A DNA stretch of 64,000 bases. It comes from Ascidiella aspersa (Eukaryota). Both the position numbers and the translations under genes were made by a program. Position 1 is the first letter of the stretch. Each line of letters begins with the position of its first letter. A model generated the notes under the pieces. It was not told the origin of the DNA and did not search any database. It was given only the letters and a program-made list of their open reading frames with translations. Location: the NCBI GenBank assembly GCA_963924565.1, contig OZ004611.1:1054001-1118000 (forward strand), in the 5' to 3' direction. Of the stretch, positions 14,636 through 45,885 are shown in pieces.

Positions 14636-16037
14636 CTGAAACAACAAATTGACGAGCGGAATAAATTTTGAAAGCTCGATTAATGTGAGCCACAAGATCA
14701 AGGTCGAATCGTGCTTTCAACACGTTTAAAGTAAAATAGTAAAGTTTGTCGCCGTTAGAAATGTTCAAAGTAGAATATCGGATCCTTAGATTTGAATTCA
14801 ATTTTGCCGTTTATTTCGGGTAATTGCGACCAATTACTTCGCGTCTTGCGATAACCTTCGCCTGATAATTAAGTGTTTTGGGGCGAGCGTCTAACCTAAC
14901 TTGTATTGCCAATGCAGGGATTTTGCAATTTCCATAAATGCAACTTAAATGCAAGTTGCAAAAGTAATATTCCATCGTAAAACGTGCTGGCCTTGGACAA
15001 AACGCGTTACGGGGTTACTCAAGGTCAACTTTAGGACAATATTTAGCGAGGTTACTCACAGCGTAATTGTTAAGTAATAGTAACGCATTACTTGCAGTAG
15101 TAACGTTGTATTCTTTACATCATAATGTTTGACCAGCCTAGCAAAAAATTCCCAAAATCGATATTATAAGTTTTTTTTTTCTGTTCCGTAAATAGCTTAC
15201 GAAGACATGACTAACATTAATGAAAATAAAATCGAAACTATAATGTTAACGTCCTTCGGTTTTGTTCGCTTACAATGTTCAATGGCCGCCAAAGCTTTTG
15301 CTTCATATTTAAGGAGCCGCGAAAAAAGGTTGAAAAACACTGTTTTAAATTAATGATTAATGAAAGTTTAACACCTGTCCCAAATGGCTGTGGTAAGTTA
15401 TTTGGGTCAGTAAACTCACAAGTGAAATGCGAGCAAAGTATTCATGCTTAAAAATGGTAAAATGAATGCAAAGGAGAGTTTTTAGTTTGCAAGCCAGACA
15501 GAATTGTCTCAGTTTCATGCAAAGGTATATCGCTGACTTAAATCACATCTTGGTTTTTATAAACATAGCAAAGCAGTAAAAGGTGTTTCAGGGTCAGCTA
15601 AGGTGACGAAATATTTTGCCACAACAGGAAGTAAGGCGGAGGATGACGTCACTGCTGACGAGGGTACTTGTGCTTTTCACACAGTTAAGCACCACAATAA
15701 CTTTTATGTATGAATTATACGTCATCTTTGCTGAAGAAACAACTAAATTCTTTGCCAATTTTACAATAGAAATGCCGTGTGTCTCATCGCACCCTCGAAA
15801 ATAAATATTTGTTCAACTATGCGAAGCCAATTTTTGCGCTACACGCGAGAAGCGAGTGTTTTCCGTCTTTTTAATATAAATACGTCACGTTTTGTAACTT
15901 TATGACGTAACTTGTGACGTCCCCTGATCTGGAGTTGGTGAAATGCAACCGAAGTAAGCTTGTCCAGGATTTCTCGTTTCAAAACATGGAAACCCTACCT
16001 TTCAAAATCTAATCCGCTCGCCAACTCGTTGTTTCAG

Positions 16038-19000
16038 ATCAGTTGGCTTGTTCTGAGTTATAACCGCATCGACGACGAAGGAGCTCTTGAGCTTTCTCGC
16101 GTCCTCCCAAACATCGAGAAGTTGTATCTGATGGACTGCAACCTGACAAGTCAAGGTTTCAAACACATTTGCAAAGGAATCGGGATAATGACGCACAAGG
16201 TAAAGTGCTTTATTGTCGGCATTTTGTTGTTAAATGTTACCGCGACTAGAAATGTTCAAAGTGGAATTCCAAAGATTCTAGAATTATAGCTTTCGAATCC
16301 AGAATAATGAATCAAGAGGTTTGAATCCCAGTGTTTGGTGAAATATTTATAATATATATATAGGCGTTAACGACTCCGCAATTAATCATAAAATGTTTCT
16401 GACATATCGATATAGTAATCAAAATTTTAATTACAGAAGATTTACATTCTAAACAACTGTCATTTAAAGCAGTTGTTTAAATTGCATTATTGTAGGAAAA
16501 AAACAAACCAGGTTGTTGCCCCAACTTAATTTTAAGTAAATATAGTAAGTGAAATGCACCACAATAAATTCTTTACAAATTCTGTTCGTTTTTATAAGGT
16601 ATTGTTGTGATTTAGTTTTAGTTTACTACAAACGTCTTCCGTCAATAAGCCGGTAAAACATTATGATGTAAAGAATACAAAGTTACTACTGCCAGTAATG
16701 CGTTACTAACACTGCTGACGAGGGCACTTATGCTTTTCACACAGTTAAACACCACAATAACTTTTATCAATGAATTGTACGTCATCTTTGCTAAAGAAAC
16801 TTTTCCCGATTCTGTATAGCAATGACCCCCCGCGAACTAAATTTTTTGCCAATTTTACAATAGAAATGCCGTGTGTCTCATCGCAGCCTCAAAAATAAAA
16901 GTTTAGTCAACTATACCCACTTTCGCTCTACACGCGAGACGCGAGTGTTTTCCGTCTTTTCAATATAAATACGTCACGTTTTGTAACTTTATGACGTAAC
17001 TTGTGACGTCCTCTGATCTGGAGTTGGCCAGTTCAACCGTATTAAGTTTGTCCAGAATTTATCGTTTCAAAATATGGCAACCCTACCATTTAAAATCTAA
17101 CCTCGCTCGTCAACTCGTTGTTTCAGATCACGTTGCTGGATCTGAGTGATAACCGCATCGACGACGAAGGAGCTCTTGAGCTTTCTCGCGTCCTTTCAAA
17201 CATCGTGCAGTTGTATCTGCGGGACTGCAACCTGACAAGTCAAGGTTTGAAACACATTTGCAAAGGAATCGGGGAAATGACTCACGAGGTAAAGTGCTTT
17301 ATTTTCGACATTTTGTTGTTCAATGTTACCGCGACTAGGAATGTTCAAAGTAGAATCCCAAGGTATTCTAGAATAAAAGCTTTGGAATCCAGAATAACTA
17401 ATCCTTGTGCATTTGTTAGAAATTATTTACCTTTTGTTTTTTTGGTCAAATATTCATAATATATATAATCTTAAACGACTCAGCAATTAATCATAAAACT
17501 TGCCAATATAGTAATGAAATACAACTTAATAAATTCTTCACAAATTCTGTTCGTTATTTATAATTTATTGTTGTGATTTAGTTTTAGTTTACTACAAATG
17601 TGATCTGTCAATAAGACGGTCAAACATTGTGATGTAAACAATGAAGTCATTAATGCTAGTAATGCGTTGTCACTTAACAATTACGCTATGAGCAACTTCG
17701 CTAAATATTGGCCTAAAGTTGACCTTAAGTAACCTCGCAACTCGTTTTGTCCACAACCACAGATGCTGTTTCTGAATAATAACGACTTCGGCGACGAAGG
17801 AGCTCTTGAGCTTTCTCGCGTCCTCCCAAACATCGAGGATTTGTGGGTCAATGGTTGTGGCATCACTTGGGAAGTCAAGAAGGTGATCAGATCGAAACTG
17901 AAAGAACTTGGACGTGCCGTGAGTAACAACAATAAATAAACCAATAACCTAATTTACTGACACGAAAAGCCACTGTGTTACGTCACAATATAAATAATTT
18001 GATCTGACACCAACCACTAGAGGCGCCAAAAAAGAAATAAATAAAAAAGGGCGAGAACAATATATTGTTATTATGATAAAAGGAATAATTAGGTTTTTCG
18101 TCTAAAATATAAATGTATCTGTAGTTGTAACTGTTAAACTTCTCTGAAACAAAAATTAAAATATAAAGTATGTTAAAAAGCGAAACATAACTTTTTATAT
18201 TTATATTTTACGACTAATTTACTAGCGCAAGAAAAACACTTGTTGCTTTGAGCCAATGCAGTTTTGTTTATCTTGGCATAGAGTCACAGTTTCTGGAATA
18301 ATATTAACAACACTTTGGAAAAATGGTAGCTTTTATTCAAACTGTTTGTATGACACTGCAAAATAGCAGCAAATTATAAATCCCTGATAAAAATTGATAA
18401 AATTCCCATGTTACAAAATAAATATACGGAACAGCATATTAAATGTGCATTAGGAAAAGTCACTAAATTATCTGTAAAAAACACACATTTTATTTGTAAA
18501 TTTATTTTAATCTTTATTTTCCACATAATTTCAAACCAAATTTTCTCTAATAAATCACATTCTAAATAACAACTCAAGTTTCCCATCCAGCGATTAAATC
18601 TAAGTTCAAGGCTCGGAAACCTAAGGTTCGTTTAATAATGTAATCCCTATCGCAGATAAATCTAAGCTATAACTTGTCATCATGACTCGAAAAAAGCTGC
18701 GCGCAACCGTGATCATTTTGAAACAGTAACTATTACACCTAAAAAAAGTATTACCCCAAAACCTGTTTGTTTTTTCGCGGCTGTTAGTTTATTGAGTCTC
18801 TTTGCATCCATGGCCTTGTTCGTACCACGGCACACCGTAATCAAAGTTTTGTAAACTTTAATTTCGCCTAATATGCTATCTTTTTAAACGATCACTATTT
18901 TTGCCAACCTAAACTAGATGCTAAATTATATGACCCTCCTGTAAATACTCACAAATTAATGGTCGTCACACTTTGGAAAGGCCAAAAAAAAATTGGAAAT

Positions 19001-25366: not shown

Positions 25367-28300
25367 CTATTGAAAGAAGCCAAAATCCACGCTGTCCATC
25401 TGCAAAACACAAGATAAAAGTAATTGTTGTAAAAGGTTTTTATGCATAAGTAACTTTTGTTCCTTTTCAGCCTATTTAACACCACGGAGTCCAATTAACA
25501 TGAAAAAGCAGATTATTGAGTAATTAGATTATTTCTAAAAAAAAAAACTATGCGTCCATGGCACCGACACAAGATACCAGGGAATAAAAAGACAAATAGA
25601 TCAAAAACTTTTACATTTACGATGTGATTTAGTTGCCAAAAGTTGTTTAGGATTTATCAGGGAAATAAAGATTAAGCTAAATCAACAAATACAATTTCCC
25701 AAAGCACATTCAATAAACTATTTTGTAATATGGTAATCTTATTAATTTTTATTTATAATTTATCATTAGCTGAAAGAAAAAAATGATTTGTTGCATCATA
25801 AGCTGACAAAATAATTTGTCTAATTACTTTGTTTTTGCTTAGTCATGCAAACTTTTGAGTAAAACCAAACATTTTCCCCAAATGTTTTTAATATTATTCC
25901 AGAAATTACGAATCTAAACCAATTCGATTTTATAGTTGTTATGTGTTGGCAGTTTTATTTTAAGTACTCCTATATTGAATAAAAGAATTAATCATGATAG
26001 TCGCCATTCCTGTTAAATAGACAGGTGACATTCGCATGTGGATTTACCATTAAACTATATATTTGGATGTTTCAATCTGATTTTGAGCTGCATGTTGAAA
26101 CAGCTTATCTATGTAACAGTGTTAGAGTACAAGAAAAACAGACATGTGCACCTTCAGGCCCCAGTTTGTACTATAGCATACCCCTTATGTATTAGGTAAT
26201 AGGCCTAGTTTACCACCTCTACATGGCAATGCTGATACATTCCTTAGGCAAACACATCAGTTAAGTTTAGCGGCGCGAACAAAAAAAAGAATAATTTAGG
26301 CGCAAAAATATTCTTCACCAGAAAAGGCTGGCCCAGACAAACAAAACCGCATTAGCTCAAGGCAATAATTTTTTAACGCCAGTTTTTTAATTATTCGTAA
26401 AATAGAAAATAAATATAAAAAGTTACGTCTCGCTATTTGACACATTACTTTAAATTTTTGCCGCAATAATGTTTTACACTTCTCCCCGGATTTATTTGTT
26501 TTTTTTAGAGCCTCTAGTGTTGGTGTTAGACCAACTTATTTACATTGTGACGTAACACAGTGACTTCTCGTGTCAGTGATGTAGGTTTTTAATTAATTTA
26601 TTGTTGTTACTCACGTCACGTCCAAGTTTTCTCAGTTTCGATCTGATTACCTCCCTGCCTTCCTTAGTGATGCCACAATCATTGACCCACAACTTCTCGA
26701 TGTTTGTGAGGACGCGAGAAAGCTCAAGAACTCCTTCGTCGTCGATGCGGTTAGCAGTCAGATACAGCCACTTGATCTGAAACAACAAATTGACGAGCGA
26801 ATTTAGATTTTAAAAGGTAGGGTTGCCATATTTAGAAACGAAAAATCCTGGAAAAACTTACTACGGTTGAATTTTGACCAACTCCAGATCAGGGACGTCA
26901 CAAGTTACGTCATAAAGTTACAAAACGTGACGTATTTATATTAAAAAGACGGAAAACACTCGCGTCTCGCGTGTAGAGCGTAAATTGGCTCAGTATAGTT
27001 GAACAAAATTTATTTTCGAGGGTGCGATGAGAGACAGGGCATTTGTATTGTAAAATTGGCAAATAATTTAGTTCGTGGGGGGTGTAGCGTGTTTTTCTTG
27101 TCATTTTGTCAACTGCGAATTCTAACTTTAATTATTAATTTGCGCCTTACTTTAAAAATAGGGATTAGGGACTTGGGTTCATATTTCGAAATGTATTAAA
27201 CTGTAACATCTTATTTTGGTTGGTATGTGTTTAATCTGTTTGTGCACACGGCCCTTTTTAAGCCAGTTTAACATTCTCTGCACACGGGACATTTAATGGT
27301 GCGTTTCTCGTATTCTTTCTAATCTGACCTCTGGCGATTCTCCACTGGACTTTTAAATTTAATGACTGCCAATTTCGCAAGTAATGGTCACGTTGTTCTG
27401 ATCTAATCTTTTCGCTGGCGCCAGCCGTCCTCGGACCGAAGAATTAATCTGTTTTGCCATCGCTATAACTTTACTGTCTTTATTAAATTGCGTGCTTTCC
27501 TATAACTCGTTGACGCCCTTCCCGCACTTCCAGTTCTTGCGTAACTGCTTTTTAGAAGGTGTCTATATTAATCGGCGTCAGAGCGTCTCTTTTGTCCAGT
27601 ATTTGGGAAGTGGGCCATTGCGTTTAGAGGTCAGCACGTTTTTGTGTAGTGTCCTGTCTGTAAGTAACTTTTGCTCACGTATTAAGCGTTGGTGTGGTGT
27701 TTGACATTTTGGTTCATCTAATACACTTAGTTGCTTGGGTTAAGTTGTGTGGTCTGTAGAATAAACTTAGGCATTGAGGCAAATAACTCCCGATTATCTT
27801 TTAAGAACTCATTGCGGTTGCGTCCTGTCGGACAAGTATAGGTTAGGCGGTAGATTCTAATATACTAGGGCGCGGCAGGGCGTAACACGTTTGGTGCCCC
27901 GGTGTTTGTGGTTGCTATTTGCTTCCGGAATAAGGTATTCGGGTATAAGATTTTGTTGCGCAAAATTTGGTTGTGTTTTGTGTTGCGAACGTGTGTTTGT
28001 CGGAATTTTTGAAGCGTGAATTGGGCGTTTGTGTTGGTGAGAGTTGAAAGAAGTCTAGTCTGAAACCTTTTCGCGTTTGTAAAATCATGGAAAAATTAAC
28101 GTCTGTTTTGGCGTCTTTAAACAAGCCGGTGGGAACTAGCGAAGGTTCGGGCGTGTCGCATCAGGACCGCAAAATGCAAGCACAGAATTATATTGCTGAA
28201 ATTGAAAGACTTAATCTTGAGTTGGACTTGTTGCGTTCTTCTAGACAAGATCATTGCATAGCCCTTGAGAAATCTCGCGATATGGCAAAGGGAATCGAGC

Positions 28301-31300
28301 AGCAATTAAGGATTGATCAAAAAGCGCACAAGTTAACTTCTAACGCTAAGGAGGCGGAAATTAAGGCTTTGCAAAAGTTATTCAAAGACGATTCAGCAGT
28401 AAAATCGTCCACTTTGGTTGCGTTGGCGTCTAGGCCAGTTTCATATGATGTAGAGGATGTGAAAGATGTCTCGTTAGAAAGTCCAGCGCCTCCGTATGTT
28501 TCGAATTTGTATCCGGGATTGGGCGATAAGCAAAGCGATGTTCCTGGCGATGTGCCAGCTGAATCGGTGAAACCAGTGTTGGTAGGTGAGAAATTTACCG
28601 AGGATTCTTACAATGCTTTAACGCCTCCGTCGAGCTACATACCGCGAACGAGCGTTTCAGATCCACCTCGCTTACCTCGTTTTAGCTTTGAAACCCCATG
28701 GGCTAATCCGCAGAAGTTAAAGTTTGACAATTCCACTAAGAAGCGCGTTGACTTGGCACAATTAATGCGCGCCGCTCCAGGAAAGGAACTTCAATGGCTC
28801 GAGTTAAATGTCCGCCAGTTAAGGCAATTAGGTTTAAATAACGAAAATTTGTTGACAACGCTGTTGGCGACTTGTGACACGCATTTGTCTCTACAATCTT
28901 TTTTACAAGCTTTGCTTTTGAATATAAACATGACCAGTGAACAAAAGCTAACGACCCTGCAGGAGCACGTAAAGGCAACGTTTAAAAAATCTCATCTGGC
29001 ATTGATCAGTCATTTGCGCGCTTTGTTGGAGAATGTAAGATATGACAATGTCGTTGTAAACCCAGTTCAGGCGATAACTACGGCTTTTGCTCAGGAAGGC
29101 ATTTTGTTGGATGACTTGGCAAGCGACAGTCCGTTTTTGCGTTTAGTTGAGGAGGTGTTGTTAAAGAAATTGCCTACCAGTGTTGCGTTGCAAATTGAAG
29201 GCGAGCCTTGGAGAAATATGCAGAAAATATTACACCGCTATTTCACCTTATCTACAGCCCGTTCCAGCAGCTCGGATCCTGTCAAGAAAGTTTTGGTCTC
29301 GCATTTTGATGACGGTAAGACTGTTTTATCTGATAATAATGAGGAGTTGAAAAAACTAACTGAAAAGGTTTCACATTTAAGCGGGTTGGTGTTGCAGAAA
29401 ACTATTGATGAAAAAAACGATAGGACTAACAATTGTGAATCGAATCAGCAATCTAATATGTTATCTAATGATATAAGGTCTCGTTCTAAATGTTTCTTTT
29501 GTCAGGTTGAGGGCCACTTTGCTCGTGACTGCGATTTGAAGCGGTTGTTTCGTGCAAATGGTTGGAACGTGTATTCAAGAACAGGTGACGAAGTTTTTTT
29601 GTCCTCGAGATCTGCGGGCCGTGGCGGCGGAAGATCGACCTCTGCAGGCCCGTGGAGAGATGGGCGTTGGTCTCGGCAACCGACCTCGGCTCGGGACTCG
29701 GACAACGGCGGGAACTCGCAACGTTTTTCCGGCCGAGGGCGGGCGCTGGGTCGTTCTGACCAACAGGTACCTCGTTTCAATTCATTCAATCGTTCAAATA
29801 CCTTTCGGAATAATGATTACTCACAAAACGCCTTTTCAAAAAACTAGATTCAGGCTGGGGCTGCAATGAACCGCCGCAACCTCAGCCTTCTCGAATGACG
29901 ACACAATTGAATCACGTTTTGACTTCACCTAATGGCACTGCGCATTTCTTTGTAACAGATAACGTGACTTGTCAACCATTTCTTTTAGATACGGGTGCTG
30001 GGGCTAACATAATACATCCTTCTGCGTTGCCTAAGTCTATAAAGATAAGCCCTTCGAATGCTAAATTTTCGACTTTAGATGGGACACGCAGTGCTTTGAA
30101 ATCACAAGGAACAGTCTCTGTTCCGATTATGATCTCTTCCACTACTATAACTCTTGAGTTTGAAGTTTTAGATCAGACGCCTTATAATATCATTGGAATT
30201 GCTGACATCATTCAACACGACTTGCTGAACAAAGGAACTCTTGAGATTCGTGGTTCGTATAACGACGCGGTACAGGTATTGTCTGCTTTGCGTTGTGATC
30301 CATCAGAGGCGTTTGATAACCAAAAAAAGTTGACTTACGAACAGGCAGCAAAAATGGCTTCAGATCGTCTTCCTCAGGCGGCGATTGAGCCATCCGTAAA
30401 AACTTTAATAGCTCCTGAAAAGTTTGACGAAATCTTAAACAAATTTCCGCATATCTCTGATTTAAAATATAATCTGCAGCAACCGTATAAGCTGCCTTAT
30501 AAATTGTCCATTCAATTAAAACCTGGCAGCCATCGGCCAATAACTGGCCCCATATATAGCACTGGTCCCGAGCAAATGGCGGTTTTACACAAATGGCTAG
30601 AAGAATTTTTAGACCTAGGAATTTTGAAACGGGATTCCACTCCTTGGCGGAATCCAGTATTTTTGGTAAAGAAAAAGCCATCAGGATACAGAGTCGTTGT
30701 TGATTTTCGCGCTTTGAATAGCATTTTAACTCAGGATGATTACAGTTTGCCTCGTGTTGACTCAGTTCCGAAATATATACAAGGTAAAAAATTTTTCAGT
30801 GCAATTGACTTAACAAAAGCTTTTCACCATGTACAGGTGGATGAGGATTCCACACGTTATCTGGGGTTAGCTACGGAATTCGGATCAGCTTCGTGGTCTA
30901 ATTGCCCTCTTGGGGTTAAATCCGCCCCAGGCGTCTTCCAGGCCAACATGGATGAGTTGAGCAAGGAAATCTTGATTCGTTACAATGAGTGGAGACAGTC
31001 GAGAGGTTTGAGTGTTGTTTGTGAAGCTGTAAAATGTTATATTGATGATATTCTTATTGCCACTGAGACTGAATCTGAACATTTGAAACTAATTGACATC
31101 GCTTTAGGAGTTTTGTCTGAATACAATTTAACTGTAAATAAGGACAAATGCGTTTTTGGGAAAGATAGAGTCCGTTTCCTGGGTCATGTCGTTTCTGAGG
31201 AGGGTCAGCGACCGCTCTACTCTCGTTTACAAGGTTTACTTGAGATTCCTTTGCCTAAAACGGTGCATGATTTACGTCAATTTTTGGGTGTGGTAAGATA

Positions 31301-34300
31301 CGAAAAGAAACATGTGCCGCATTTAGCCGCTCTTACGTGTTCATTGGATCAGATCGGTAAAAATGTACCTGCTAAAATGTCTTCCAAAGTTTTGATAGAT
31401 TGGACCGCAGCTCTTTTAGAGGCATATTTAGAAACTCGGCAAGCTATGATGAGCGCAACGACACTGCGCTCTTACGACCCCTCGCGGAGGTTGCACATCG
31501 CCACAGACGCGTCAGATAAGGCCGCTGGCGCTGTTTTGTTTCAGTTCAACCATAAAAATGAAATGGAACCATTAGGGTATTTCAGTCAATCATTAAACAA
31601 AGCTCAACGGTGTTATTCGGCTTTTGTTAAAGAGCTTTTGGCGTTGCGTTTGGGTTTGCATTATTTTCGGAATCATTTAGAAAGTAATCATTTTACGATA
31701 CACACCGATCATCAGCCTCTTGTCCGAGCGATAGAAAATGGTCATTCGCCTTTAAAAGGTCTTTCGGCAAGACAACGTGATTGGATAGGCCAGATTTTGG
31801 AATTTGATTTTGACATACAGCATGTAAAGGGTTGTGACAATGTTATCGCCGACTATTTTAGTCGTGAAGGCTGTACAGTCTCATCTGTAAATGAAAAACC
31901 CCTTTTGTATTTCGCTAGAACACAGTTTCCTTCAGCTTTGTCCCTAGATCGTTTGTATGAACTACAGAAATCGTCTTTTTGCGACTGCACGACAACGACT
32001 TGCGACAAGCGTCATGTAAAACAGGGCCGACTAGCTAAATTTCACAACGGTTCATTAATAATGTGCGATGTTCCTGGTTCGTTAGATCTGGTTCTCTTGC
32101 CAAATGTGGAATCGCAGAAGTATGTTTTTAAGTCATATCATGACTACACTCATCACAGTGCGCGTGTAACCTGGAATGCGCTTCGTAATATCTATTGTGG
32201 TCCTAAATTTCGCAAAAATATCTTGCGTTGGTCAGCGGAATGTTCGGTTTGCATCAAAAATCGTCCCAAACGTTTAGAGCAGGTCGCTTTACAGCCTTTC
32301 CAGTATCCGAATGGGCGCCTTCGAACTTGTCATATGGATGTGTTTTCGCTACAAGCTTCTAATACTCAGCCAAGCTATCATAAATTATAAACTATGATCG
32401 ATCGCGAGACGACCTTTGTTGTGTTAGCTCCCTTGCTACATGAGACCGCTGAACATACGATTGATGCGTTTAGAAAATATTGGATTGCTTATTTGGGTTC
32501 ACCGGAAGTCCTTGTAACAGACAATGGAGGGAATTTTAGGTCTATGGCGTTTCATAACTTTTGTACGGAACATAATATCGATCATAGATACAGCACACCT
32601 TATAATCCACGGTGTCAAGGAAAAATTGAGCGTTTTCATCGGTCTTTGCGTGATCTTGTTTCAACCCAGCCGGTTCCCGAGAATTGGCTGCAGAACCTCG
32701 CATGGCTACAGTTGGCATTAAACTCCATGTGGCGAGGACACATGGATTCGTCGCCTTTCAAAGCTTTAGTGGGCATGACTCCGAGAACTCCTGTAAGTGT
32801 AACTGCGCCTTTAGTGTCTGGATTTGCTCCCGAAAATCTTGATTCGGAGCCCGGAATTGTACATAGTCGATTGCCTTCTCGCAGAACGGTGCGAACGGTT
32901 CCGTCAAAATGGGAGGACGCTACGCACGCTTATTTGCCCGTTCGCTCAAGGTCAAATAAAATCTCTCCACTGCGGGAAGGGCCATTTGAAATTGTTCGCT
33001 TGACAAGGACTAACGTGACTGTTGATTTGTCTCAAGGAGAATTACGCAAGCAGCCTCGCGATCAGGCATTTCCTGTAACATTATCCGTTGATGAGTAGGA
33101 GAATTTGAATTCAGATGTATGTTGTTTGTCATTGCAATTGCTTGTTTTCGTTTTGGCTAACCTTTAATGTTCGATAAGTCCTTTGGGTTTCTGTTGTTTG
33201 AAATGTCCGAATTTTTCGGGTATAAATGTTTTGCTCGTGATTTGTTGTTTTGGGCGCGTGGTCATGGAAATATGGTTTCCAATGCCTAAACTAATGCTCG
33301 GAATTATTGTTTTTGGAATTCTGATGTTTTTGAAAATATGAGCGCTGTAATTTTCCCCAATGGAGTTTCTTGATAATTGCGTCAGTTTTTGATTTCATCG
33401 TTTATTGGTGATTAGAATGTTTGCAATCTTGCGTTTGTCTGCTGTGTGATGGCGAATGTGATTTTTGGTGTTCTGCGAAATTTGTGTCTTTCAGTTGGTG
33501 TGCAGGACTGCGCGTTGTGCAAACTGATTGCGGTGATGTAAATATTGAAATAAAAAAAAAGGGTTATAATGATAAATTTTCCCTTAAAAAAAAAATATAG
33601 CCGTAGGAAGGACTTGGGAAGTTCCTTTAGCGGCGAAGGAGGTCGACTTATCCCTCCTAAATTGAAGTGCGGCGGTAGGGTTGGTAGGATTCCCTTAGAC
33701 GCGCACTATATTTTTGCATATTGAAGTGGTAGGGCCGAATTGCCTCACAAATATGTATCTGGGGAGTGGAGAGTCCCCTTTCGTGCTAGTGTCGCACAAT
33801 TGACGCGTTCTTGAGTAAATGTGGTAGGGCCGGGTAGCCTCACATGTGATAAAATAAGAGAAGTAGCATTCCTCTTAGTGATAAAAAAGAGACGTAAAAT
33901 TCCTCTTAGCGATTTAGAGTCGAAGATGATGACGAGTAATTCCATCTGACGACGATAGGACAGGGTTATGGTCCTTCTAGACGTTGTGTCTGATATTCGC
34001 CGGCGAGTTTATTAACGTGGCAGTTGTATATTTGTTAATTGTTTTTTTTAACCTATTAAAAATTAAGTGTTAACCAGGTTTTGGTATACCTAAACGTTTT
34101 TGCATAAAGACTGATCATCTTATGTTGCAGCGTTTTTAAGATCTAGGGTTCATTGGATTGTGCACGTCCTTTGAAACGATAACCTGAACACTAAACAAAA
34201 AAAATTAACCTGTAAATAATGCATATCATGAAGTTGGGATGTGTTCCTATGTTTTTCCTGGTTTGTTTTTGGACATGTAATTCCGTGTCCAATATAAGAG

Positions 34301-37300
34301 CATGGAGGATAAAACGTTTTGTGGAAAACGGGACAAATTCGGTAATGCGTTGTACCCCGTGTACGGCATCCTGTGGAAATAGTTCCAGGATTTGTGAAAA
34401 CGGGATTCGTTTACCCTGTGTTCTGGCAAAATGTCCTGTTTCATGCCCCAAATGCTCTTCTGCTCCAGGTTCGTTGGGAAAGCAGAATTTTCGTTTAATT
34501 CAAGGACGTCAGGTAAAATGTTCAGTGTGTTTACCTACCTGGACCTTATGGAGTGAGTGGTCTGCATGTCACTCTATAAATAAACAGATAAGGTCACGCA
34601 ATTTTTTTGCGATGCGTGGTTCGGTTTTACGCCCTATTGCTGGTGAAAGTCAGCAAATCCGAAATTGCACCAGTAATGGTCAAATAGTCAATGTAAATGA
34701 CACAACTAATATATCGGTCCATCCTCATTCTGTAGCGGTTATTGCTGTTATAATGCCACTAACTGTATTAGCATTTGTTGTAATTTGTCTGTTTTGTTTG
34801 AGGGCATATAACCGGAGCCGTCGACTCCGGGTGCCTCGGATTTAATACCTTGTTTTGTTGTGTAGGTTTAACAATGAATTGGATTTTGTTTTCATTTTTA
34901 TTTTTAAAATTAGGGGTGGTTTTCACTCAGAATATCCAATTGAACGATGTGGCGGTGACTGATGCGTCCAATCTGGACGCATTAAAGTTAAAAGCAATGG
35001 TTCATCCGGAGTCCAATGCATCTCAAACTTCCATTCCGCTTCATCAGCTGCAGACGAACTTTAGCTCCAATGGGTCAACATTTTTTTCACCCATTTTTGG
35101 CAATTTCAGGTCTGCAGCCAAGACTTGGACCGAGTACCATTATCCTACAGGAAAGTATTATGCAACGCCGAAGGAGTACGCGGAGGAATGCACATGTGAT
35201 AGACAACGACAATTGGTAACATTTCGGGTGGGGGTTAATCACATTAGGCTATCAAGCCTACATGAAACCTATCTAGAAGTGAATTCGGAATCCCACACCG
35301 ATGTATACGGAAAGGTCCACGACCTAAGATCGGCGTATAGTCTGTTAACACTTTTCCTATGCACTCTTTTCCCAAAATATGAAAGAATAAAGGCCGTCGT
35401 AACTTTAAATCATGAGCCTTATAATTATCCATCCAAGGCCAAATTAGCTGATTGGTGGCCTGTTCAAGATTATTATGATTTGCATGAGTTAACTCGTTTT
35501 CGTGTTTTAAATAGCGCTACGCCTTGTGCTGAGACGGGTTGTTTGGGCACTATGGCTGTTTCTGTCCCTGTAGGAAATCCTAGACTTTTCGATAAAGACC
35601 CTCGTGCTTCTTCGACCGATTTTATTTTTCCGAATGATACAAACATTCGTGGTCATCATAACGAACATATAATACGCACTCCCGGATGTTTGCTTTATAG
35701 TCAGTTTGGAACTAACGGGTTTTGGGCTCCCTTTAATCAAACCACTCCCGTTGACACTATTGGCTTGCGTATGAATGTACATATATCTGTTTTTAACCTT
35801 AGACTCGCTCATTTTTCTAACAAGGGTTTGATTGTAAAATTACCGTATTATAGGCTCGGTGATAAGTTTTCAATATTGTTCGCGTCTTATCCAATTAATT
35901 GGTTTCCTAATGAGACCATTTTCGCTGATGGTGATGGTCCTCCTGTCCATGATTTGGTATTAGATTTCCAAATCAAGAAAAACTCTTGTGATCATAATGT
36001 ATCTGTCCCTTATCAAGTTTACAATTTTTATGACACTTATCCATTAAATCTTGCAGGTGATACCGCCTGTCAAGCTAGGGCATCAAGGTCTGTTTGCACC
36101 TCGGCAACAGGCTCATTAGAGGTTTCTTTGATGCATAAGATTCCACACGCGCCGTTTGAAAATGAACGTAATATCCCTGTAGCCCCTGTACAATTTTTGC
36201 CCACTCATTTTCGTCAAAAACGTTTTTTCTTTGTTGCCTTACTCGCTTGTTTATTTTCTGAAGCCGTAATCCATTTCGAAATGCGAAAATTAGAGAACGA
36301 ATTTGCTATTCGTCTAAATAAGCTGCAGTCGGAGATAGACGACAAATTTAACCGAGTTGCAGCTCAAATGAAACAATTTGCGGTCTTATTAACCCAGAGT
36401 AATTTGTCTCTGGAAGATTTACAGAATACGCAGTTGGCATTGGCACTTGATTTAAGACGCTTCGAGTATATGCAGCTAAATGAAGATCGTTTACTCTTAC
36501 ACGAGATTCAAAAGAATAGAATGCTGATACTACAAACTCAAAAGTCTGCCCTCGAAAATACACGCGCTACCCTGGGTTCCTCCATTGCGCAGTCGCATGC
36601 CATACGGGCATGTCTTCGATCGTTGAACACTTTGCAAGCACTTAAAGCCGATAATACGTCGCTTTATTCCCTAGCGATTACTCGCGGCCAAGTTCGTCTT
36701 CGCAGATTAGCTACTCTGGAGTTGCGACAGCTAAACAACTCGATGGCAAACGATTCATTAAGCCTGGACGAAGCTGTTCTCAACAATCGAACGAGCGTTG
36801 TTCATCGAGACCTCGATCGTGACATCTCAGCTCTGCAAAACGTCAGCGTCGCAACGAGCTTCACGCTACATCCGCTTGTGTTCACGGAAGACCCATCACT
36901 GTTCAAGTTTTCCAACAGCGGTTTCCTTGGCGATGTCGGAGCTGGTTTAAATTCATTGGAAAACGTCGCGATCCATGGGCTAGATGATGTGCGGCAGGTG
37001 GTTACATCGACTATTGATGATGCCACTGGAATTCTTGGCAAACCTCTTCTTGTGCTTGCCATTTTTGGAGGAGCTGCAGCTGCTGTCATCCTCATCCTGT
37101 TGACTAGCTGCTACGCGTACAGACATTTTCGTGCCAGGAATGACGCTGTTTATTCACGTGGCATGCCAATTATTAAATGAACTTTTTAAAGGCGGAAGGA
37201 AATGTAGCGTGTTTTTCTTGTCATTTTGTCAACTGCGAATTCTAACTTTAATTATTAATTTGCGCCTTACTTTAAAAATAGGGATTAGGGACTTGGGTTC

Positions 37301-39097
37301 ATATTTCGAAATGTATTAAACTGTAACATCTTATTTTGGTTGGTATGTGTTTAATCTGTTTGTGCACACGGCCCTTTTTAAGCCAGTTTAACATTCTCTG
37401 CACACGGGACATTTAATGGTGCGTTTCTCGTATTCTTTCTAATCTGACCTCTGGCGATTCTCCACTGGACTTTTAAATTTAATGACTGCCAATTTCGCAA
37501 GTAATGGTCACGTTGTTCTGATCTAATCTTTTCGCTGGCGCCAGCCGTCCTCGGACCGAAGAATTAATCTGTTTTGCCATCGCTATAACTTTACTGTCTT
37601 TATTAAATTGCGTGCTTTCCTATAACTCGTTGACGCCCTTCCCGCACTTCCAGTTCTTGCGTAACTGCTTTTTAGAAGGTGTCTATATTAATCGGCGTCA
37701 GAGCGTCTCTTTTGTCCAGTATTTGGGAAGTGGGCCATTGCGTTTAGAGGTCAGCACGTTTTTGTGTAGTGTCCTGTCTGTAAGTAACTTTTGCTCACGT
37801 ATTAAGCGTTGGTGTGGTGTTTGACATTTTGGTTCATCTAATACACTTAGTTGCTTGGGTTAAGTTGTGTGGTCTGTAGAATAAACTTAGGCATTGAGGC
37901 AAATAACTCCCGATTATCTTTTAAGAACTCATTGCGGTTGCGTCCTGTCGGACAAGTATAGGTTAGGCGGTAGATTCTAATATACTAGGGCGCGGCAGGG
38001 CGTAACAGGGGGTCATGGCTATAGAGAACCGGAAAATATTTCTTCAGCTAAGATGACGTACAATTCATTGATTGATTCGTGATATTAAAGTAACATGTAA
38101 TAATTTGACAATAATATTGTAAGTAGATTTGTATTATGCCGAATATTAATACCTCTCGTTTGGTGATAGTTATTAGCGCTCATCTTTAATCCATAACCCA
38201 ATATATCCTAAAATGGTACAATTGTGGTGTTTGATTTTCCCAAGGACAAAAAAAGGTGTATCATCTCCCGAATAGGACTCACTAGCGACTTTAGGTTTAT
38301 TACTTATTAAACTAATATATGATATCACCATAGGTTTCTCAACATAACTAAAATTCGCTACAGCAGTGACGTCATCTTCCTCCTTACTTCCTGTTGTGGC
38401 AAAATATTTCGTCACCTTAGCTAACCCTGAAACTCCTTTAACTGCTATGCTATGTTTATAACAACCAAGATGAGATTTTAAATCCCCGCTACCTTTGCAT
38501 GAAACTGAGACAAATGTGGCTGGGTTGAAAACTAAACACTCTCCTTTCCATTCATTTTTACCATTTTCGAAGCATGAATATTTCGCTACCTTAAATGCGT
38601 CAAGTTGAAAAGTAATATTCCATCGTAAAACGTGCTGGCCTTAGACAAAACGCGTTATGAGGTTACTTAAGGTCAACTTTAGGCCAATATTTAGCGAGGT
38701 TACTCACAGCGTAATTGTTAAGTAATAGTAACGCATTACTTGCAGTAGTAACTTTGTATTCTTTACATCATGATACTTAAACGGCTTATTGACAGAAGAC
38801 GTTTGTAGTAAACTAAAACTAAATCACAACAATACCTTATAAAAACGAACAGGACTTGTGAAGAATTCATTGTGTTGCATTTTACTTATTATATTTACTA
38901 AAAATTAAACGGGGCAACAACCTGGTTTTTATAATTATGTTGTTTAATGTTCTTGTTCGTGCAGTTATGCATCTCAATTTAAACAACAACTTTAAATGGC
39001 AGTTGTTTAGAATGTAAATCATCTGTAATTTAATTTTTCGATTACAATATCGATATGTTGGAAAAAGTTTTATGATTAATTGCGAAGTCGCTAAAGG

Positions 39098-39140
<43 letters not shown>

Positions 39141-41885
39141 GAATATTACAACAAAAAATAGAAGGCAAATAGTTAATAACAAATACACTGGGATTCGAAA
39201 TTCTGGTTCGTTATTCTGTATTCGAAACCTATTGTTCAAGGATACTTTTTTTTCCACTTTGAACATTTCTAGTCGCGTTAACATTGAACAACACAAAGTC
39301 GACAATAAAGCACTTTACCTTGTGCGGCATTTTCCCGATTCCTTTGCAAATGTGTTTCAAACCTTGACTTGTCAGGTTGCAGCCCATCAGATTCAACTCC
39401 ACGATGTTTGGGAGGACGCGAGAAAGCTCAAGAGCTCCTTTGTCGTCGATGTAGTTATAACTCAAAACCAGACATTTGATCTAAAAACAACAAATTGATA
39501 AGCGGATTTAGATTTTAAAAGGTAGGATTGCTATATTTTGAAACGATAAATCCTGGACAAGCTTACTACGGTTGCATTTGACCAACTCAAGATCAGGAGA
39601 CGTCACAAGTTACGTCATAAAGTTACAAAACGTGACGTATTTTTATTAAAAGACGGAAAACACTCGCGTCTCGCGTGTAGAGCGAAAGTGGCTTCGTATA
39701 GTTGAAAAAAAAAATTATTTTCGTGGGTGCGATGAGACACACGGCATTTCTATTGTAAAATTGGCAAAAAAATATTTAGTTCGCGGGGGGTTATCGGTAA
39801 ACGTTTTTTTAGCAAAGATGACGTACAATTTATTGTGGGTGCTTAACTGTGTGAAAAGCATAAGTACCCTCATAAGCAGTGACGTCATCTTCCGCCTTAC
39901 TTCCTGTTGTGGCAAAATATTTCGCCACCTTGGCTGACCCTGAAACATTTTTAACTGCTTTGCTATGTTTATAACAACCAAGATGTGATTTAAGTCAGCG
40001 ATATACCTTTGCATGAAACTGAGACAATTGTGCCTGGCTTGCAAACTAAACACTCTTTTCATTCATTTTTACTATTTGTGAAGCAATTAATAATTTGCCC
40101 GCATTCCACTCGTGGGTTTACAACTTCTCATGCCATTTTGTTCCATAAAGCTACAAGGTCAATTTTAGATTTAGATGTTAGCAGTAAATAACATTGTACG
40201 CAACAGTTATGTCCTTTGAATACTAAGCTCATTACGAAACAGGAAAAAAATTCAACTACTTTTAGTAATCATTATCATTTTTGCGAATTTATTGGCGACA
40301 TATATATTACACAGTACGGTTAAATTCCAGACATATAAACAGATCATTCCTCCCTGACACAGATTTGAACCTATTGAAAGTCACCTAATATGAGCCAAGT
40401 GAATTATAAAAGTTGGTCGCGGTAACATTGAACAAAAAAATGTTCACAATAATAAACATTCCTAGTCGCGTTAACATTCAACAACAAATAATCGACAACA
40501 AAGCACTTTACCTTGTGAGTCATTTTCCCGACTCCTTCGCAAATGTGTTCCAAACCTTGACTTGTCAGGTCGCTGCCCATCAGATTCAACTCCTTGATTG
40601 GTTTGTCGACATGCTGGAGCATCCGTCCCAAGGCGTGGAATGAACTTGTTCCGATGGGTTGGCTGCCAAAATAAGCCTCCACAGGGAAGTGCTTTGCGAA
40701 ACATTGGAGCACTGCTTCATTGCATTCTTGCAAATCAACAATCTTTCCAATATCTAAACACAACTTTATATTTAACAAATATTAAAAACAAGCAACAAAG
40801 AAACAACAAACAAATATAGTAAACGGTCATTGTGGCATCACAAGTGCGAAAACAATCGTGTTTTATTGACGGATGTAAAAATTAAAATAAATTAGCAGAG
40901 TAGAAATATCACAAAGTAACAGAAATGTTATATTCTTACCTTCAGGTTTTTGTTTGAATTCCTCGAGAAAGTGTTCGTAGAACATCTCAGCCTTGACTGC
41001 AAACATGGAAATCATTACTAATAATCATAGCTGTTTACTGTTGTTTTAACACATAAATGCGTCTACTATAACTGTTTACTTCATCGACATTTGCTTGTTA
41101 TTTACACGATTGTTTGACCACAAGGTGTCAGCAGACTAGAATGTTTTGACATTAGTTTTCGCCTTGTCTAATCTCATGCTTATTGCTGTGTTTCATTATA
41201 TATGTTTGTTGTGTAAGATGTTTACAGTACCAATAAATACATAAATTGAATCTTATAATTAACAATGCCAGGTCGGACAACTTAATTTACAGAAAAAAAA
41301 TCAGGATTTAAAAATTCAGTTTAAATGATAACCTCTGACTGGATTAAATTTGTCATTTCACCTTTAACATCGGCTTTAAACAAATAACTTACATTATCCG
41401 CTTAAAATGCAGCTGAAAATTACTAACAAAAACATAGTAATTAATTTAAAAGCATGTTAGCACACTAAGTATATTCTAGTACTGCAATGTTTGGCCATTT
41501 CAGTTATTCTTGTTGAAAACAAGTTTAAGTATAGCCAAGTTTAAAAATTGCCACTTACTTTTATTTTGTTGGTTCTGCGAATTGTTAGTTAAGGTTTGAT
41601 CGACATCAGATTGACTTGGTTGAGTGGCAGATGTTGATGGTTGTTGATTGACAACCTGCATACGAACATAGCTACTTGCCCTAATACCACAAAAACTGTT
41701 AATAAATATTGAGTTAAATGTTTGTGCCAGCATTGTGGATCCAATACCTTGAAACAGTAGTCAAATTTTTCAGGCCACAAAGTAGATTTTGGGGTCGCTG
41801 CGTACCACTTGCTTTTTTCCAGTTTTCAAAATTTTTAATTTTATATTCTTTATTATAGTAAATATTAAATAAATTTGCAAGTTGG
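25367..41885 (-). CDS. LRR gene B (RI/NLR-type LRR), possibly disabled; exons (41748-41885 damaged), 41559-41655, 40940-40996, 40512-40753, 39319-39480, 26615-26776, 25367-25399
   Basis: GT-AG boundaries with compatible phases from 41655 onward, ending MDSVDFGFFQ*. The first visible exon has AA instead of the AG acceptor and a 23-bp insertion relative to gene A. A 10.9-kb retroelement sits in the penultimate intron. Confidence 0.7.
27083..27887 (+). repeat. 5' LTR (805 bp)
   Basis: TGTAGCG...GTAACA. No differences from the 3' LTR seen by eye (constant offset 10120). AATAAA at 27760. Confidence 0.97.
27892..27905 (+). promoter_or_regulatory. Primer binding site TGGTGCCCCGGTGT (resembles complement of elongator tRNA-Met 3' end)
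   Basis: Starts 4 nt after the LTR. The first 10 nt complement the ...CGGGGCACCA end of vertebrate elongator tRNA-Met as recalled. Confidence 0.6.
28087..29847 (+). CDS. gag: Gag (586 aa)
   Basis: First ORF after the PBS. N-terminal coiled-coil-like segment, CCHC knuckle CFFCQVEGHFARDC and RG-rich tail. Confidence 0.92.
   Translation: MEKLTSVLASLNKPVGTSEGSGVSHQDRKMQAQNYIAEIERLNLELDLLRSSRQDHCIALEKSRDMAKGIEQQLRIDQKAHKLTSNAKEAEIKALQKLFKDDSAVKSSTLVALASRPVSYDVEDVKDVSLESPAPPYVSNLYPGLGDKQSDVPGDVPAESVKPVLVGEKFTEDSYNALTPPSSYIPRTSVSDPPRLPRFSFETPWANPQKLKFDNSTKKRVDLAQLMRAAPGKELQWLELNVRQLRQLGLNNENLLTTLLATCDTHLSLQSFLQALLLNINMTSEQKLTTLQEHVKATFKKSHLALISHLRALLENVRYDNVVVNPVQAITTAFAQEGILLDDLASDSPFLRLVEEVLLKKLPTSVALQIEGEPWRNMQKILHRYFTLSTARSSSSDPVKKVLVSHFDDGKTVLSDNNEELKKLTEKVSHLSGLVLQKTIDEKNDRTNNCESNQQSNMLSNDIRSRSKCFFCQVEGHFARDCDLKRLFRANGWNVYSRTGDEVFLSSRSAGRGGGRSTSAGPWRDGRWSRQPTSARDSDNGGNSQRFSGRGRALGRSDQQVPRFNSFNRSNTFRNNDYSQNAFSKN
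29838..29888 (+). promoter_or_regulatory. -1 programmed ribosomal frameshift signal
   Basis: A AAA AAC heptamer directly before the gag TAG, 7-nt spacer, then stem AGGCTGGGG/CCTCAGCCT. The -1 frame is open into pol. Confidence 0.85.
29844..33098 (+). CDS. pol: Pol (protease, reverse transcriptase, RNase H, integrase), interrupted by an in-frame TAA at 32388-32390
   Basis: LLDTGA protease, YIDD RT, TDAS...TDH RNase H, HHCC zinc finger and DDE core (HMDVF, TDNG, KIER). ORFs 29895-32390 and 32394-33098 are in the same frame. Confidence 0.95.
33559..33975 (+). other. Array of ~12 short hairpins in the pol-ORF3 intergenic region
   Basis: Consecutive inverted repeats, e.g. AGGAGG/CCTCCT, AGTGCG/CGCACT, GGGGA/TCCCC, TAAGAG/CTCTTA, AGGAC/GTCCT. 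Confidence 0.6.
34219..34845 (+). CDS. Accessory type I membrane glycoprotein with TSP1-like Cys-rich ectodomain (208 aa)
   Basis: Signal-like N-terminus, PCTASCG and WTLWSEWSAC...RSR motifs, several N-x-S/T sequons, TM VAVIAVIMPLTVLAFVVICLFCL and a basic tail. Confidence 0.8.
   Translation: MHIMKLGCVPMFFLVCFWTCNSVSNIRAWRIKRFVENGTNSVMRCTPCTASCGNSSRICENGIRLPCVLAKCPVSCPKCSSAPGSLGKQNFRLIQGRQVKCSVCLPTWTLWSEWSACHSINKQIRSRNFFAMRGSVLRPIAGESQQIRNCTSNGQIVNVNDTTNISVHPHSVAVIAVIMPLTVLAFVVICLFCLRAYNRSRRLRVPRI
34874..37180 (+). CDS. env: Env-like fusion glycoprotein (768 aa from ATG 34874)
   Basis: Signal peptide, RQKR furin site at 36212-36223 followed by hydrophobic FFFVALLACLF, long heptad-rich region, C-terminal TM and short tail. 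Located immediately before the PPT. Confidence 0.88.
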   Translation: MNWILFSFLFLKLGVVFTQNIQLNDVAVTDASNLDALKLKAMVHPESNASQTSIPLHQLQTNFSSNGSTFFSPIFGNFRSAAKTWTEYHYPTGKYYATPKEYAEECTCDRQRQLVTFRVGVNHIRLSSLHETYLEVNSESHTDVYGKVHDLRSAYSLLTLFLCTLFPKYERIKAVVTLNHEPYNYPSKAKLADWWPVQDYYDLHELTRFRVLNSATPCAETGCLGTMAVSVPVGNPRLFDKDPRASSTDFIFPNDTNIRGHHNEHIIRTPGCLLYSQFGTNGFWAPFNQTTPVDTIGLRMNVHISVFNLRLAHFSNKGLIVKLPYYRLGDKFSILFASYPINWFPNETIFADGDGPPVHDLVLDFQIKKNSCDHNVSVPYQVYNFYDTYPLNLAGDTACQARASRSVCTSATGSLEVSLMHKIPHAPFENERNIPVAPVQFLPTHFRQKRFFFVALLACLFSEAVIHFEMRKLENEFAIRLNKLQSEIDDKFNRVAAQMKQFAVLLTQSNLSLEDLQNTQLALALDLRRFEYMQLNEDRLLLHEIQKNRMLILQTQKSALENTRATLGSSIAQSHAIRACLRSLNTLQALKADNTSLYSLAITRGQVRLRRLATLELRQLNNSMANDSLSLDEAVLNNRTSVVHRDLDRDISALQNVSVATSFTLHPLVFTEDPSLFKFSNSGFLGDVGAGLNSLENVAIHGLDDVRQVVTSTIDDATGILGKPLLVLAIFGGAAAAVILILLTSCYAYRHFRARNDAVYSRGMPIIK
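37188..37202 (+). promoter_or_regulatory. Polypurine tract
   Basis: AAAGGCGGAAGGAAA abutting the 3' LTR. Confidence 0.85.
37203..38007 (+). repeat. 3' LTR (805 bp)
   Basis: Matches the 5' LTR; followed by GGGGG. Confidence 0.97.
39099..39135. repeat. (TA)n microsatellite
   Basis: Directly visible; an expanded version of a short TA run present in paralogous introns. Confidence 0.9.
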
Positions 41886-44554: not shown

Positions 44555-45885
44555 TTATTTACTTATTTTTGTTTACCTTTATTTACTTATTTTTGTTTAT
44601 TTTTGTTTTTTTTTGTTTAAGAAATAGATACGAAAAAGCAATGTAAAACTAGCAAAAAACGATAAGGTCAGAAGGTACTATACAACGGTTACGTACTGCA
44701 GGATTTATTTTAAATCTGTGCCTTCGCACGTGTCTGTGCGACTTCGCCTACGGCTGGCAATTATTAGTAATAGTAATAAAATTAGTGGTAAATAATAAGT
44801 AAAATGGTTGTTGACCAATTTGTAAACCTCGGGCAGCGTCTGCTCCGTTGTTTACATTTAGTTGTCATGGTGAGAAAATAAACAAAATCAATAGAAGATG
44901 ATTAAGCTGTATTTAATACGATTGCAATAGTTGCGATTTCACACTGTCTTGGAAGTGTTTAAAGGTGATATTTTTTTGTTCGTGACGTAAGGTTGCCCAT
45001 ATTTTAGGTCCTATATATTTAAGCTGTTTTTGGCCCGAGATCCTACGTATTTTTTCAACATAGTAATTTTTTGCGTCTCCCAGTCTAGTGTTATGCCTAT
45101 GTATCTCAGATAAAGGTCTTGAAAAATTTTGAAACAAAGCTGGAAGTAAGTTATTTTTGTAATGGTACATGAATTTAAGAATTTCCAATTGTGTTATATC
45201 TTGTATTTGTAGTATTTTGTTTTCTTTGAAGATTGTTTTTGTATGGATATGACTGTAATTGCTGATTCCAGATATGACTCTCAATGCTCTGTTCTGGAGT
45301 ATTTGTAAATGCTGAAGGTGTGATTGGCTAGCTCGTCCCCAGTTTATTATTCCATATTGCAGGTGGGAGTGAATAAAGGCGTAGTATAGCAATAATAATG
45401 TGTTTTTATTTATGTATCGTTTAATTGTGTATAGTACTCCAATGTACTGCGAGACCCTGGATGATACTGCTGTAATGTGTTGTGACCAGTTGACTTTGTC
45501 ATCCATGACAATTCCTAAATATTTAACTGAGTTGCTTCTGTGGAGTTCTACATTATTTATATGAAGTGAAAAATCTGCAATTTTTAGGTTTTAATTGTGT
45601 GTTATTACATATTGAGTTTTTGTATAATTTAGTGATAGTTTATTTGTCCTCATCCAGTCATCTACTTTAATTATTTCCTGTTGCATTTGTTTTTGTAGGT
45701 CCTTTGATTCAAGAGAGGCTGCATAAAATGGTATCATCAGCATACATTTTACATGACATGTCTGTGACATTTGGTAAATCATTTGTGTATATTTGGAATA
45801 ATATTGGAGATAGGATAGAACCTTGTGGTAAGCCACATTTTACTTGTAAGTATTGTGATTTGCGTTGTCTGGTAATTGTAGATAA
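44555..45885 (-). mobile_element. 5'-truncated LINE (CR1/L2-like) with decayed RT
   Basis: GLPQGSILSP, YADDT, KYLG and a C-terminal ORF at 44913-45506, with a frameshift and a stop. Tandem A-rich 3' tail near 44555-44600. Confidence 0.85.

Follow-up and report, generated by a model that had tools for sequence, protein, structure and literature searches.

A predicted membrane glycoprotein gene, probably derived from thrombospondin repeats, lies between pol and env in a Ty3/gypsy element of Ascidiella aspersa

A Ty3/gypsy long terminal repeat (LTR) element at positions 27083-38007 (+ strand) of a 64,000-nucleotide stretch of Ascidiella aspersa DNA (contig OZ004611.1, hereafter the window) carries, between pol and an env-like gene, an open reading frame of 208 codons (ORF3, 34219-34845, + strand). 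ORF3 is a real gene of the element and is under purifying selection. Its product is predicted to be a type I membrane glycoprotein, and its ectodomain very probably originates from thrombospondin repeats (TSRs, the TSP1 domains of the databases), the homology being weak to moderate. As read from its motifs, it is not a canonical TSP1 domain, the TSR features being split over two modules. Taken together, the data describe a lineage of env-bearing Ty3/gypsy elements having four genes, with a selected and probably TSR-derived second glycoprotein. Concerning the role of ORF3, we tentatively favour, at somewhat under even confidence, a TSR-derived glycoprotein that acts beside Env by tethering particles or producer cells to their targets.

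When the genome was searched with ORF3, 16 matches were found at 13 loci. Ten of them span at least 186 of the 208 residues without any stop codon, at 79-100% identity, and an env match lies directly downstream in all ten. Two further copies, internally deleted, also precede env, and one is a lone fragment. Comparison with the most distant copy (L008, read as L019, 79% ORF3 identity) gave a nonsynonymous divergence (dN) of 0.11 and a synonymous divergence (dS) of 0.49, that is, a dN/dS ratio of 0.23 (bootstrap 0.15-0.34). This ratio was 0.18 for residues 27-152 and 0.16 for the transmembrane (TM) segment and tail, the most constrained region being module 2 (0.11 over 52 codons). For three copies at 83-86% identity, the ratio was 0.35-0.39 with intervals up to 0.65, and for five near-identical copies it was 0.30-0.89 on 4-9 changes each. 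A chance reading frame or a decayed fragment was rejected on the basis of dN/dS and of the third-position bias (52 of the 101 differences). The earlier note had described a membrane-protein gene at 34219..34845 carried by a retrotransposon, and all the motifs that it listed are present; it had also staked its proposal on conservation in related elements, which is borne out by the ten near-complete copies, the dN/dS of 0.23, and the sister-family remnants and protein P0122 described below.

ORF3 is older than the element family of the window, since homologues occur in two element families. The reverse transcriptase (RT) of the sister family is 68.8% identical to that of the window element, the best of 60 outside proteins tested reaching 36.5%; in a quick RT tree, the two families (A and B) were joined with a support of 100 on a long branch, in a clade that this tree leaves unplaced. 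A DNA search for the sister family gave nine matches, seven of which span the ORF3 region. All seven ORF3 remnants are frameshifted and cut by a deletion into env, sit ahead of env sequence and can be aligned to ORF3 residues 41-135 at 27-40% identity. Two longer sister copies (L017 and L020) are without ORF3, the deletion also taking the start of env.

Among proteins, HMMER was run exhaustively against 1.84 billion representatives and gave two matches, P0001 (82% identity) and P0122 (38%, E 8e-26). A word-indexed protein search with ORF3 gave P0001 as sole match, and scans of metagenome contigs with alignment A1 and with P0122 gave no relatives. The first half of P0122 shows 66-72% identity to six of the seven sister remnants, with 48-55% over longer stretches, so that P0122 is probably an intact sister-type ORF3. 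Conserved in it are 12 of 12 cysteines of the ectodomain, the three ladder tryptophans, the HPHS motif before the TM segment, the juxtamembrane cysteine and the terminal RVPxI. The WxxWxxWxxC and RxR motifs are found in all nine rows of A1 and in P0122.

The ORF3 protein begins with an apparent signal peptide, read from the sequence, whose hydropathy lies below the threshold of 1.6 passed by the TM segment; a second ATG at 34228 is retained in copies without the first one. Module 1 (residues 45-79; 34351..34455, + strand) is an eight-cysteine mini-domain (C45-C79) with a CxxSCG motif and no Trp strand. Module 2 (residues 101-151; 34519..34671, +) contains a CxxC motif, the WxxWxxWxxC strand (WTLWSEWSAC, 108-117), the RxR motif (QIRSR, 123-127) and C150. 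WxxWxxW appeared in 0.1% of 200,000 shuffles of the ectodomain. Sequons are found at N149, N160 and N164, plus N37 and N54, and the ectodomain is basic (19 K/R vs 5 D/E). The single hydrophobic segment (about residues 172-193) ends in a cysteine and is followed by a basic tail (six K/R per 15 residues) terminated by RVPxI (34732..34842, +). Juxtamembrane cysteines are known sites of palmitoylation. The two modules may be linked to each other through CxxC motifs located at residues 76-79 and 101-104. Module 1 is likely a shortened TSR without its Trp strand, and module 2 likely the Trp/Arg ladder of a TSR in which only two of six cysteines are present, so that the ectodomain would consist of two tandem repeats decayed in complementary ways. 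A TNFR-like or furin-like nature of module 1 was also considered and was supported by no search.

The TSR origin is best seen with P0122. On a profile built from 62 host TSP1 repeats, its ectodomain scored 19.8 bits (reached by none of 3000 shuffles), its module 2 alone 23.1 bits in a match that covers positions 7-55 of the 66 in the profile (none of 3000 shuffles; 9.2 bits for the reversed sequence) and its module 1 10.3 bits (one of 3000 shuffles). Without composition correction, the ORF3 ectodomain was equalled by only two of 3000 shuffles. TSP1 was already the hypothesis when these shuffle tests were set up. Untargeted searches point weakly in the same direction. Of the six PDB matches to profile A3 at E<=10, four are TSR proteins (UNC5B at E 0.016, two circumsporozoite fusions and F-spondin); the four matches listed by the ESM Atlas are all TSP1 clusters, at weak scores of 0.86-0.90; the non-element genome matches of P0122 (six places, E 0.002-1) include a PF00090 site; and 16 of the 45 weak rows listed by Foldseek name TSR or TSP1 in their title, all at E above 1. 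CxxS/TC, which is the O-fucosylation consensus of TSRs, is present in all full-length rows of the alignment; its place is within module 1 instead of behind the Trp strand.

Several results weigh against this assignment. The Pfam TSP_1 families (PF00090, PF19028 and PF19030) are matched neither by ORF3 (no match at E<=1) nor by the A2 members or P0122 (E<=10). With composition correction, the window protein scored -3.9 bits on the host-repeat profile, and 545 of 2000 shuffles scored as high. The AlphaFold models are poor (mean pLDDT, the predicted local distance difference test, of 38 and 44; about 72-77 for residues 41-70), and with these low-confidence models neither Foldseek (E<=0.001) nor VIA-align (Z>=2) gave a match. 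In the single-sequence PDB search, ORF3 had no match, and P0122 and A2 gave weak rows only. Instead of six cysteines in a repeat with a Trp strand, only C117 and C150 follow that strand. Finally, no close host donor was present among the loci tested, the best host stretches reaching 21-23 bits. The best of them (23 bits with the ORF3 profile), L086:1157-9500, combines a trypsin-like exon with many TSP1 exons. The host has a large TSP1 repertoire, with 969 candidates of which 150 scored matches exceeded the cut-off, and these many TSP1 exons mark it as an animal.

Of what the earlier note had proposed, a TSP1 origin is thus upheld as likely, through the P0122 profile score and the TSR proteins in the PDB, while the canonical domain is not, the model search of ORF3 having returned no Pfam TSP1 match and the structure searches no confidently predicted fold. 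Its "captured host domain" fared similarly: distant host TSP1 exons do match, and because no close donor was found, we infer the capture. An element-born or virus-derived cysteine-rich glycoprotein convergent on WxxW and CxxC would account for the missing Pfam and fold matches, for a best PDB E value of 0.016 and for the fact that WxxWxxW is short and near-palindromic, with reversed controls at 9-17 bits. Such convergence is nevertheless very improbable in our view, as it would have to produce two separate TSR motifs in order and the match of P0122 to profile positions 7-55 of 66, and as independent searches converge on TSR proteins.

The window sequence was listed in no indexed RNA run. In order to follow transcription, reads were placed from 6% of one raw-read RNA run carrying the same species label, strands being assigned by the usual library convention. 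Over the window, 320 reads were placed, and in the ORF3 bin the depth was 7.1 on the expected sense strand and 0 on the other. At ORF3, the variant letters match the L008 copy at 10 of 10 places (among 40 of the 369 variant places). On L019 itself, ORF3 depth was 9.7-14.2 in sense and 0-1.8 in antisense, with 4.3-6.5 in the spacer and 0.4-5.4 in gag. The variant letters and the sense depth on L019 indicate that a relative of the window ORF3 is transcribed; transcription is established for this related copy, not for the window's own copy. Against a separately spliced message, no splice joint was seen at >=3 reads in the window or in L019 within this portion of the run. Loose read ends near L019:7140 were considered as splice donors and rejected, being LTR ends.

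The env-like frame that follows ORF3 (34874..37180, +, 768 residues) encodes RQKR at 447-450, then a hydrophobic peptide, a helical region and a TM segment at about 718-745. Searches of Pfam, of the PDB and of the word-indexed proteins gave no relatives of Env. In the Atlas, it matched spike S2 and haemagglutinin clusters (0.90-0.92, low recognition). From these features, Env appears to be a class I fusogen-like protein. Its predicted cleavage site lies at residue 450 of 768 and no fusion family of Pfam is matched, so that an F or gB type is not evident; the arrangement of the site resembles that of haemagglutinin or of the retroviral surface and transmembrane subunits rather than that of F. 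Env may represent a third type among those of Ty3/gypsy elements.

TSR domains are adhesion and glycosaminoglycan-binding modules, and malaria parasites use the thrombospondin repeat as an adhesion module. In the scheme that we propose, ORF3 would have been captured long ago from a host transcript and would be made from a subgenomic RNA; the protein would enter the endoplasmic reticulum, acquire glycans and arrive together with Env at the surface. There, its basic ectodomain would attach to target cells through polyanionic glycans or a TSR receptor, keeping the particle or the producer cell in place while Env fuses the membranes. Attachment proteins of paramyxoviruses and pneumoviruses sit beside F, and the ORF3-env pair resembles that arrangement in having adjacent glycoprotein genes, one for a class I fusogen; the likeness is an analogy only, with no link in sequence or fold. 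Given the rest, adhesion as the job of ORF3 is about evenly balanced with other functions. The wider picture of a two-glycoprotein envelope in a deep-branching Ty3/gypsy lineage, made of an unclassified class I fusogen and of an attachment protein built from host TSRs split into complementary half-domains, is rather doubtful as a whole.

Some observations count against the tethering role. The ectodomain of P0122 is less basic (11 vs 6). In the L008 comparison, gag and env (first 490 codons) have dN/dS values of 0.14 and 0.13, both below that of ORF3. The N-terminal subunit of Env, about 430 residues long, could bind receptors unaided; as it could make a separate attachment protein unnecessary, two other functions stay alive. 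In one of them, ORF3 would be a TSR-derived modulator of the host, displayed on expressing cells or particles as a mimic of properdin- or complement-like TSR proteins or of receptor ligands, and would dampen recognition or signalling instead of serving attachment. The conservation and the TSR evidence fit such a modulator too, and the host TSP1 repertoire is large; moreover, crocodilian endogenous retroviruses (ERVs), in the portion of PMC4299795 available, harbour between pol and env a KIT-ligand gene that was captured and is maintained by purifying selection. We nonetheless consider a modulator unlikely, since ORF3 is not like one particular host TSR protein (best host stretches of 21-23 bits) and since the low ectodomain dN/dS gives no sign of an arms race, a pairwise estimate being blind to selection at single sites.

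The other function is that of an intracellular helper of Env in folding, sorting or assembly, whose conserved tail would recruit Gag or the trafficking machinery, the ectodomain being mainly structural. The constraint on TM segment and tail (0.16), the HPHS motif, juxtamembrane cysteine and RVPxI common to ORF3 and P0122 despite their 38% identity, and the persistence of the ORF3-env pair in copies without gag-pol all speak for it. A selected, folded outer surface is suggested instead by the 12 invariant cysteines, together with both glycosylation motifs of TSRs, and we hold a helper to be rather unlikely. A cell-contact protein, acting in a direct soma-to-germline hand-over at protrusions, as with Drosophila sORF2, and dispensing with free particles, would agree with the single TM segment, juxtamembrane cysteine and polybasic tail of ORF3; small TM proteins of LTR elements have a precedent in the available text of PMC11952523. 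We judge it improbable, because sORF2 elements are without Env, unlike the window element, and because ORF3 has a disulfide-rich ectodomain of 150 residues and an apparent signal peptide. Tethering beside Env stays the reading that we favour.

The element itself (all features on the + strand) has the LTR pair, target-site duplication, primer-binding site and polypurine tract of an LTR element, and the Ty3/gypsy domain order, which runs from protease through RT and RNase H to integrase. Its 5' LTR (27083..27887; 805 bp, TG...CA) is preceded by a G run, the 5-bp GGGGG target-site duplication; the 3' LTR (37203..38007) is identical and followed by GGGGG. As the 805-bp LTRs are identical, the insertion is recent. 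A primer-binding-site-like TGGTGCCCCG (27892..27901), for which we take elongator Met to be the candidate tRNA, is followed by gag (28087..29847; 586 residues, CCHC zinc knuckle) and by pol (29895..32390; protease, RT and RNase H, then the zinc finger of integrase). The pol frame opens within the end of gag (29817-29895), near a TTTTCAAAAAAC run, and is probably reached by a frameshift there. In the window copy, an in-frame stop splits pol, ending at 32390, from the integrase core (rve, 32394..33098), which is in the pol frame. The polypurine tract lies at 37188..37202. Genome-wide, 31 LTR matches at 75-100% identity were obtained among 40 scored of 82 candidates, apparent solo LTRs included.

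Between pol and ORF3 lies a spacer of 1.1 kb. Its part from 33590 to 33990 contains short motifs that recur, among them GGTAGGGC and TCCTCTTAG, with patches conserved at about 76-78% vs L019; these are possible packaging or regulatory signals. The non-coding leader of ORF3 (34075..34176, +), with two AG acceptor-like sites (34076-34077 and 34129-34130), is 98% identical to that of L019 (100 of 102 nucleotides) vs 77% for the spacer overall; this conservation points to a possible cis signal, for instance a splice acceptor. Its predicted RNA structure shows no unusual fold (z -0.49). In four copies, drawn from both families (L019, L023, L026 and L027), RT and RNase H are deleted from the protease region to the integrase end. 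L032:6118-9999 and L036 are LTR-ORF3-env-LTR deletion derivatives that have lost gag and pol. A retrocopy of spliced RNA was rejected as their origin, one junction showing a 4-base microhomology and neither being GT-AG.

Elsewhere in the window, tandem repeats of 1.1-1.5 kb were observed at 15942-17459 (+) and at 54500-62100 and 38200-40100 (-). The first set translates to leucine-rich-repeat exons and the other two are inverted copies, so that a host leucine-rich-repeat gene cluster is likely. At 44913-45506 (-), a frame of 197 residues looks, by eye, like the C-terminal portion of an ORF2 from a non-LTR retrotransposon.

In the available parts of PMC13524379, env-bearing retrotransposons of invertebrates appear as elements of three genes, of which one codes for a fusogen, target-cell choice being unexplained outside Drosophila. 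ORF3 offers such elements a specific candidate for the targeting of cells or the evasion of immunity, and suggests that a TSR can be pared down to two complementary modules that are still under selection. Among the open-access papers listed by literature searches, none showed an LTR element or a virus with a TSR gene. The survey in PMC13524379 deals with Ty3/gypsy elements that bear env in animals at large, which it calls errantiviruses in a wide sense, and distinguishes env of the F type and of the gB type. The window element resembles the env-carrying Ty3/gypsy elements of invertebrates in its gag-pol-env order, its Ty3/gypsy pol and its recent multi-copy insertions; it differs from the elements described in those parts by a fourth ORF between pol and env, and from their F and gB types by an Env with a predicted cleavage site at residue 450 of 768 and no Pfam fusion family. 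The word thrombospondin does not occur in the main text of that paper, and four short motifs of the element and its sister had no match in seven of its supplements, outside which source-data alignments may lie; the window element itself may be listed in these source data.

A canonical TSR, in the available text of PMC6954052, is a domain of about 60 residues with a WxxWxxWxxC strand, an Arg strand and three disulfides. ORF3 is like it in the WxxWxxWxxC of module 2 followed by RxR, in the CxxS/TCG and further cysteines of module 1 and in its weak profile matches. It is unlike it in having two modules, two of six cysteines in module 2, a module 1 without Trp strand and the additional CxxC...CxxC link.

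Small membrane proteins are known from other LTR elements: ORF3 of the rotifer elements Vesta4 and Vesta6c, of 210-230 residues (PMC5408684, whose available text holds no mention of thrombospondin), and Drosophila sORF2, a small TM ORF (PMC11952523). Like them, the window ORF3 is a short membrane protein of similar size with cysteines. As far as these texts extend, Vesta ORF3 and sORF2 replace env and are proposed fusogens, whereas the window ORF3 carries TSR motifs and stands next to a full env. Among the crocodilian ERVs described in the available portion of PMC4299795, CrocERV29 carries KIT-ligand between pol and env, and CrocERV31 carries nectin3 in place of env. These genes resemble ORF3 in coding for an extracellular protein (host-derived there, presumably so for ORF3), in occupying the env region and in being under purifying selection. 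They differ in that they belong to vertebrate Retroviridae, where whole host mRNAs can still be recognized (nectin3 at about 76%), whereas the window element belongs to Ty3/gypsy and carries a heavily remodelled domain with no close donor.

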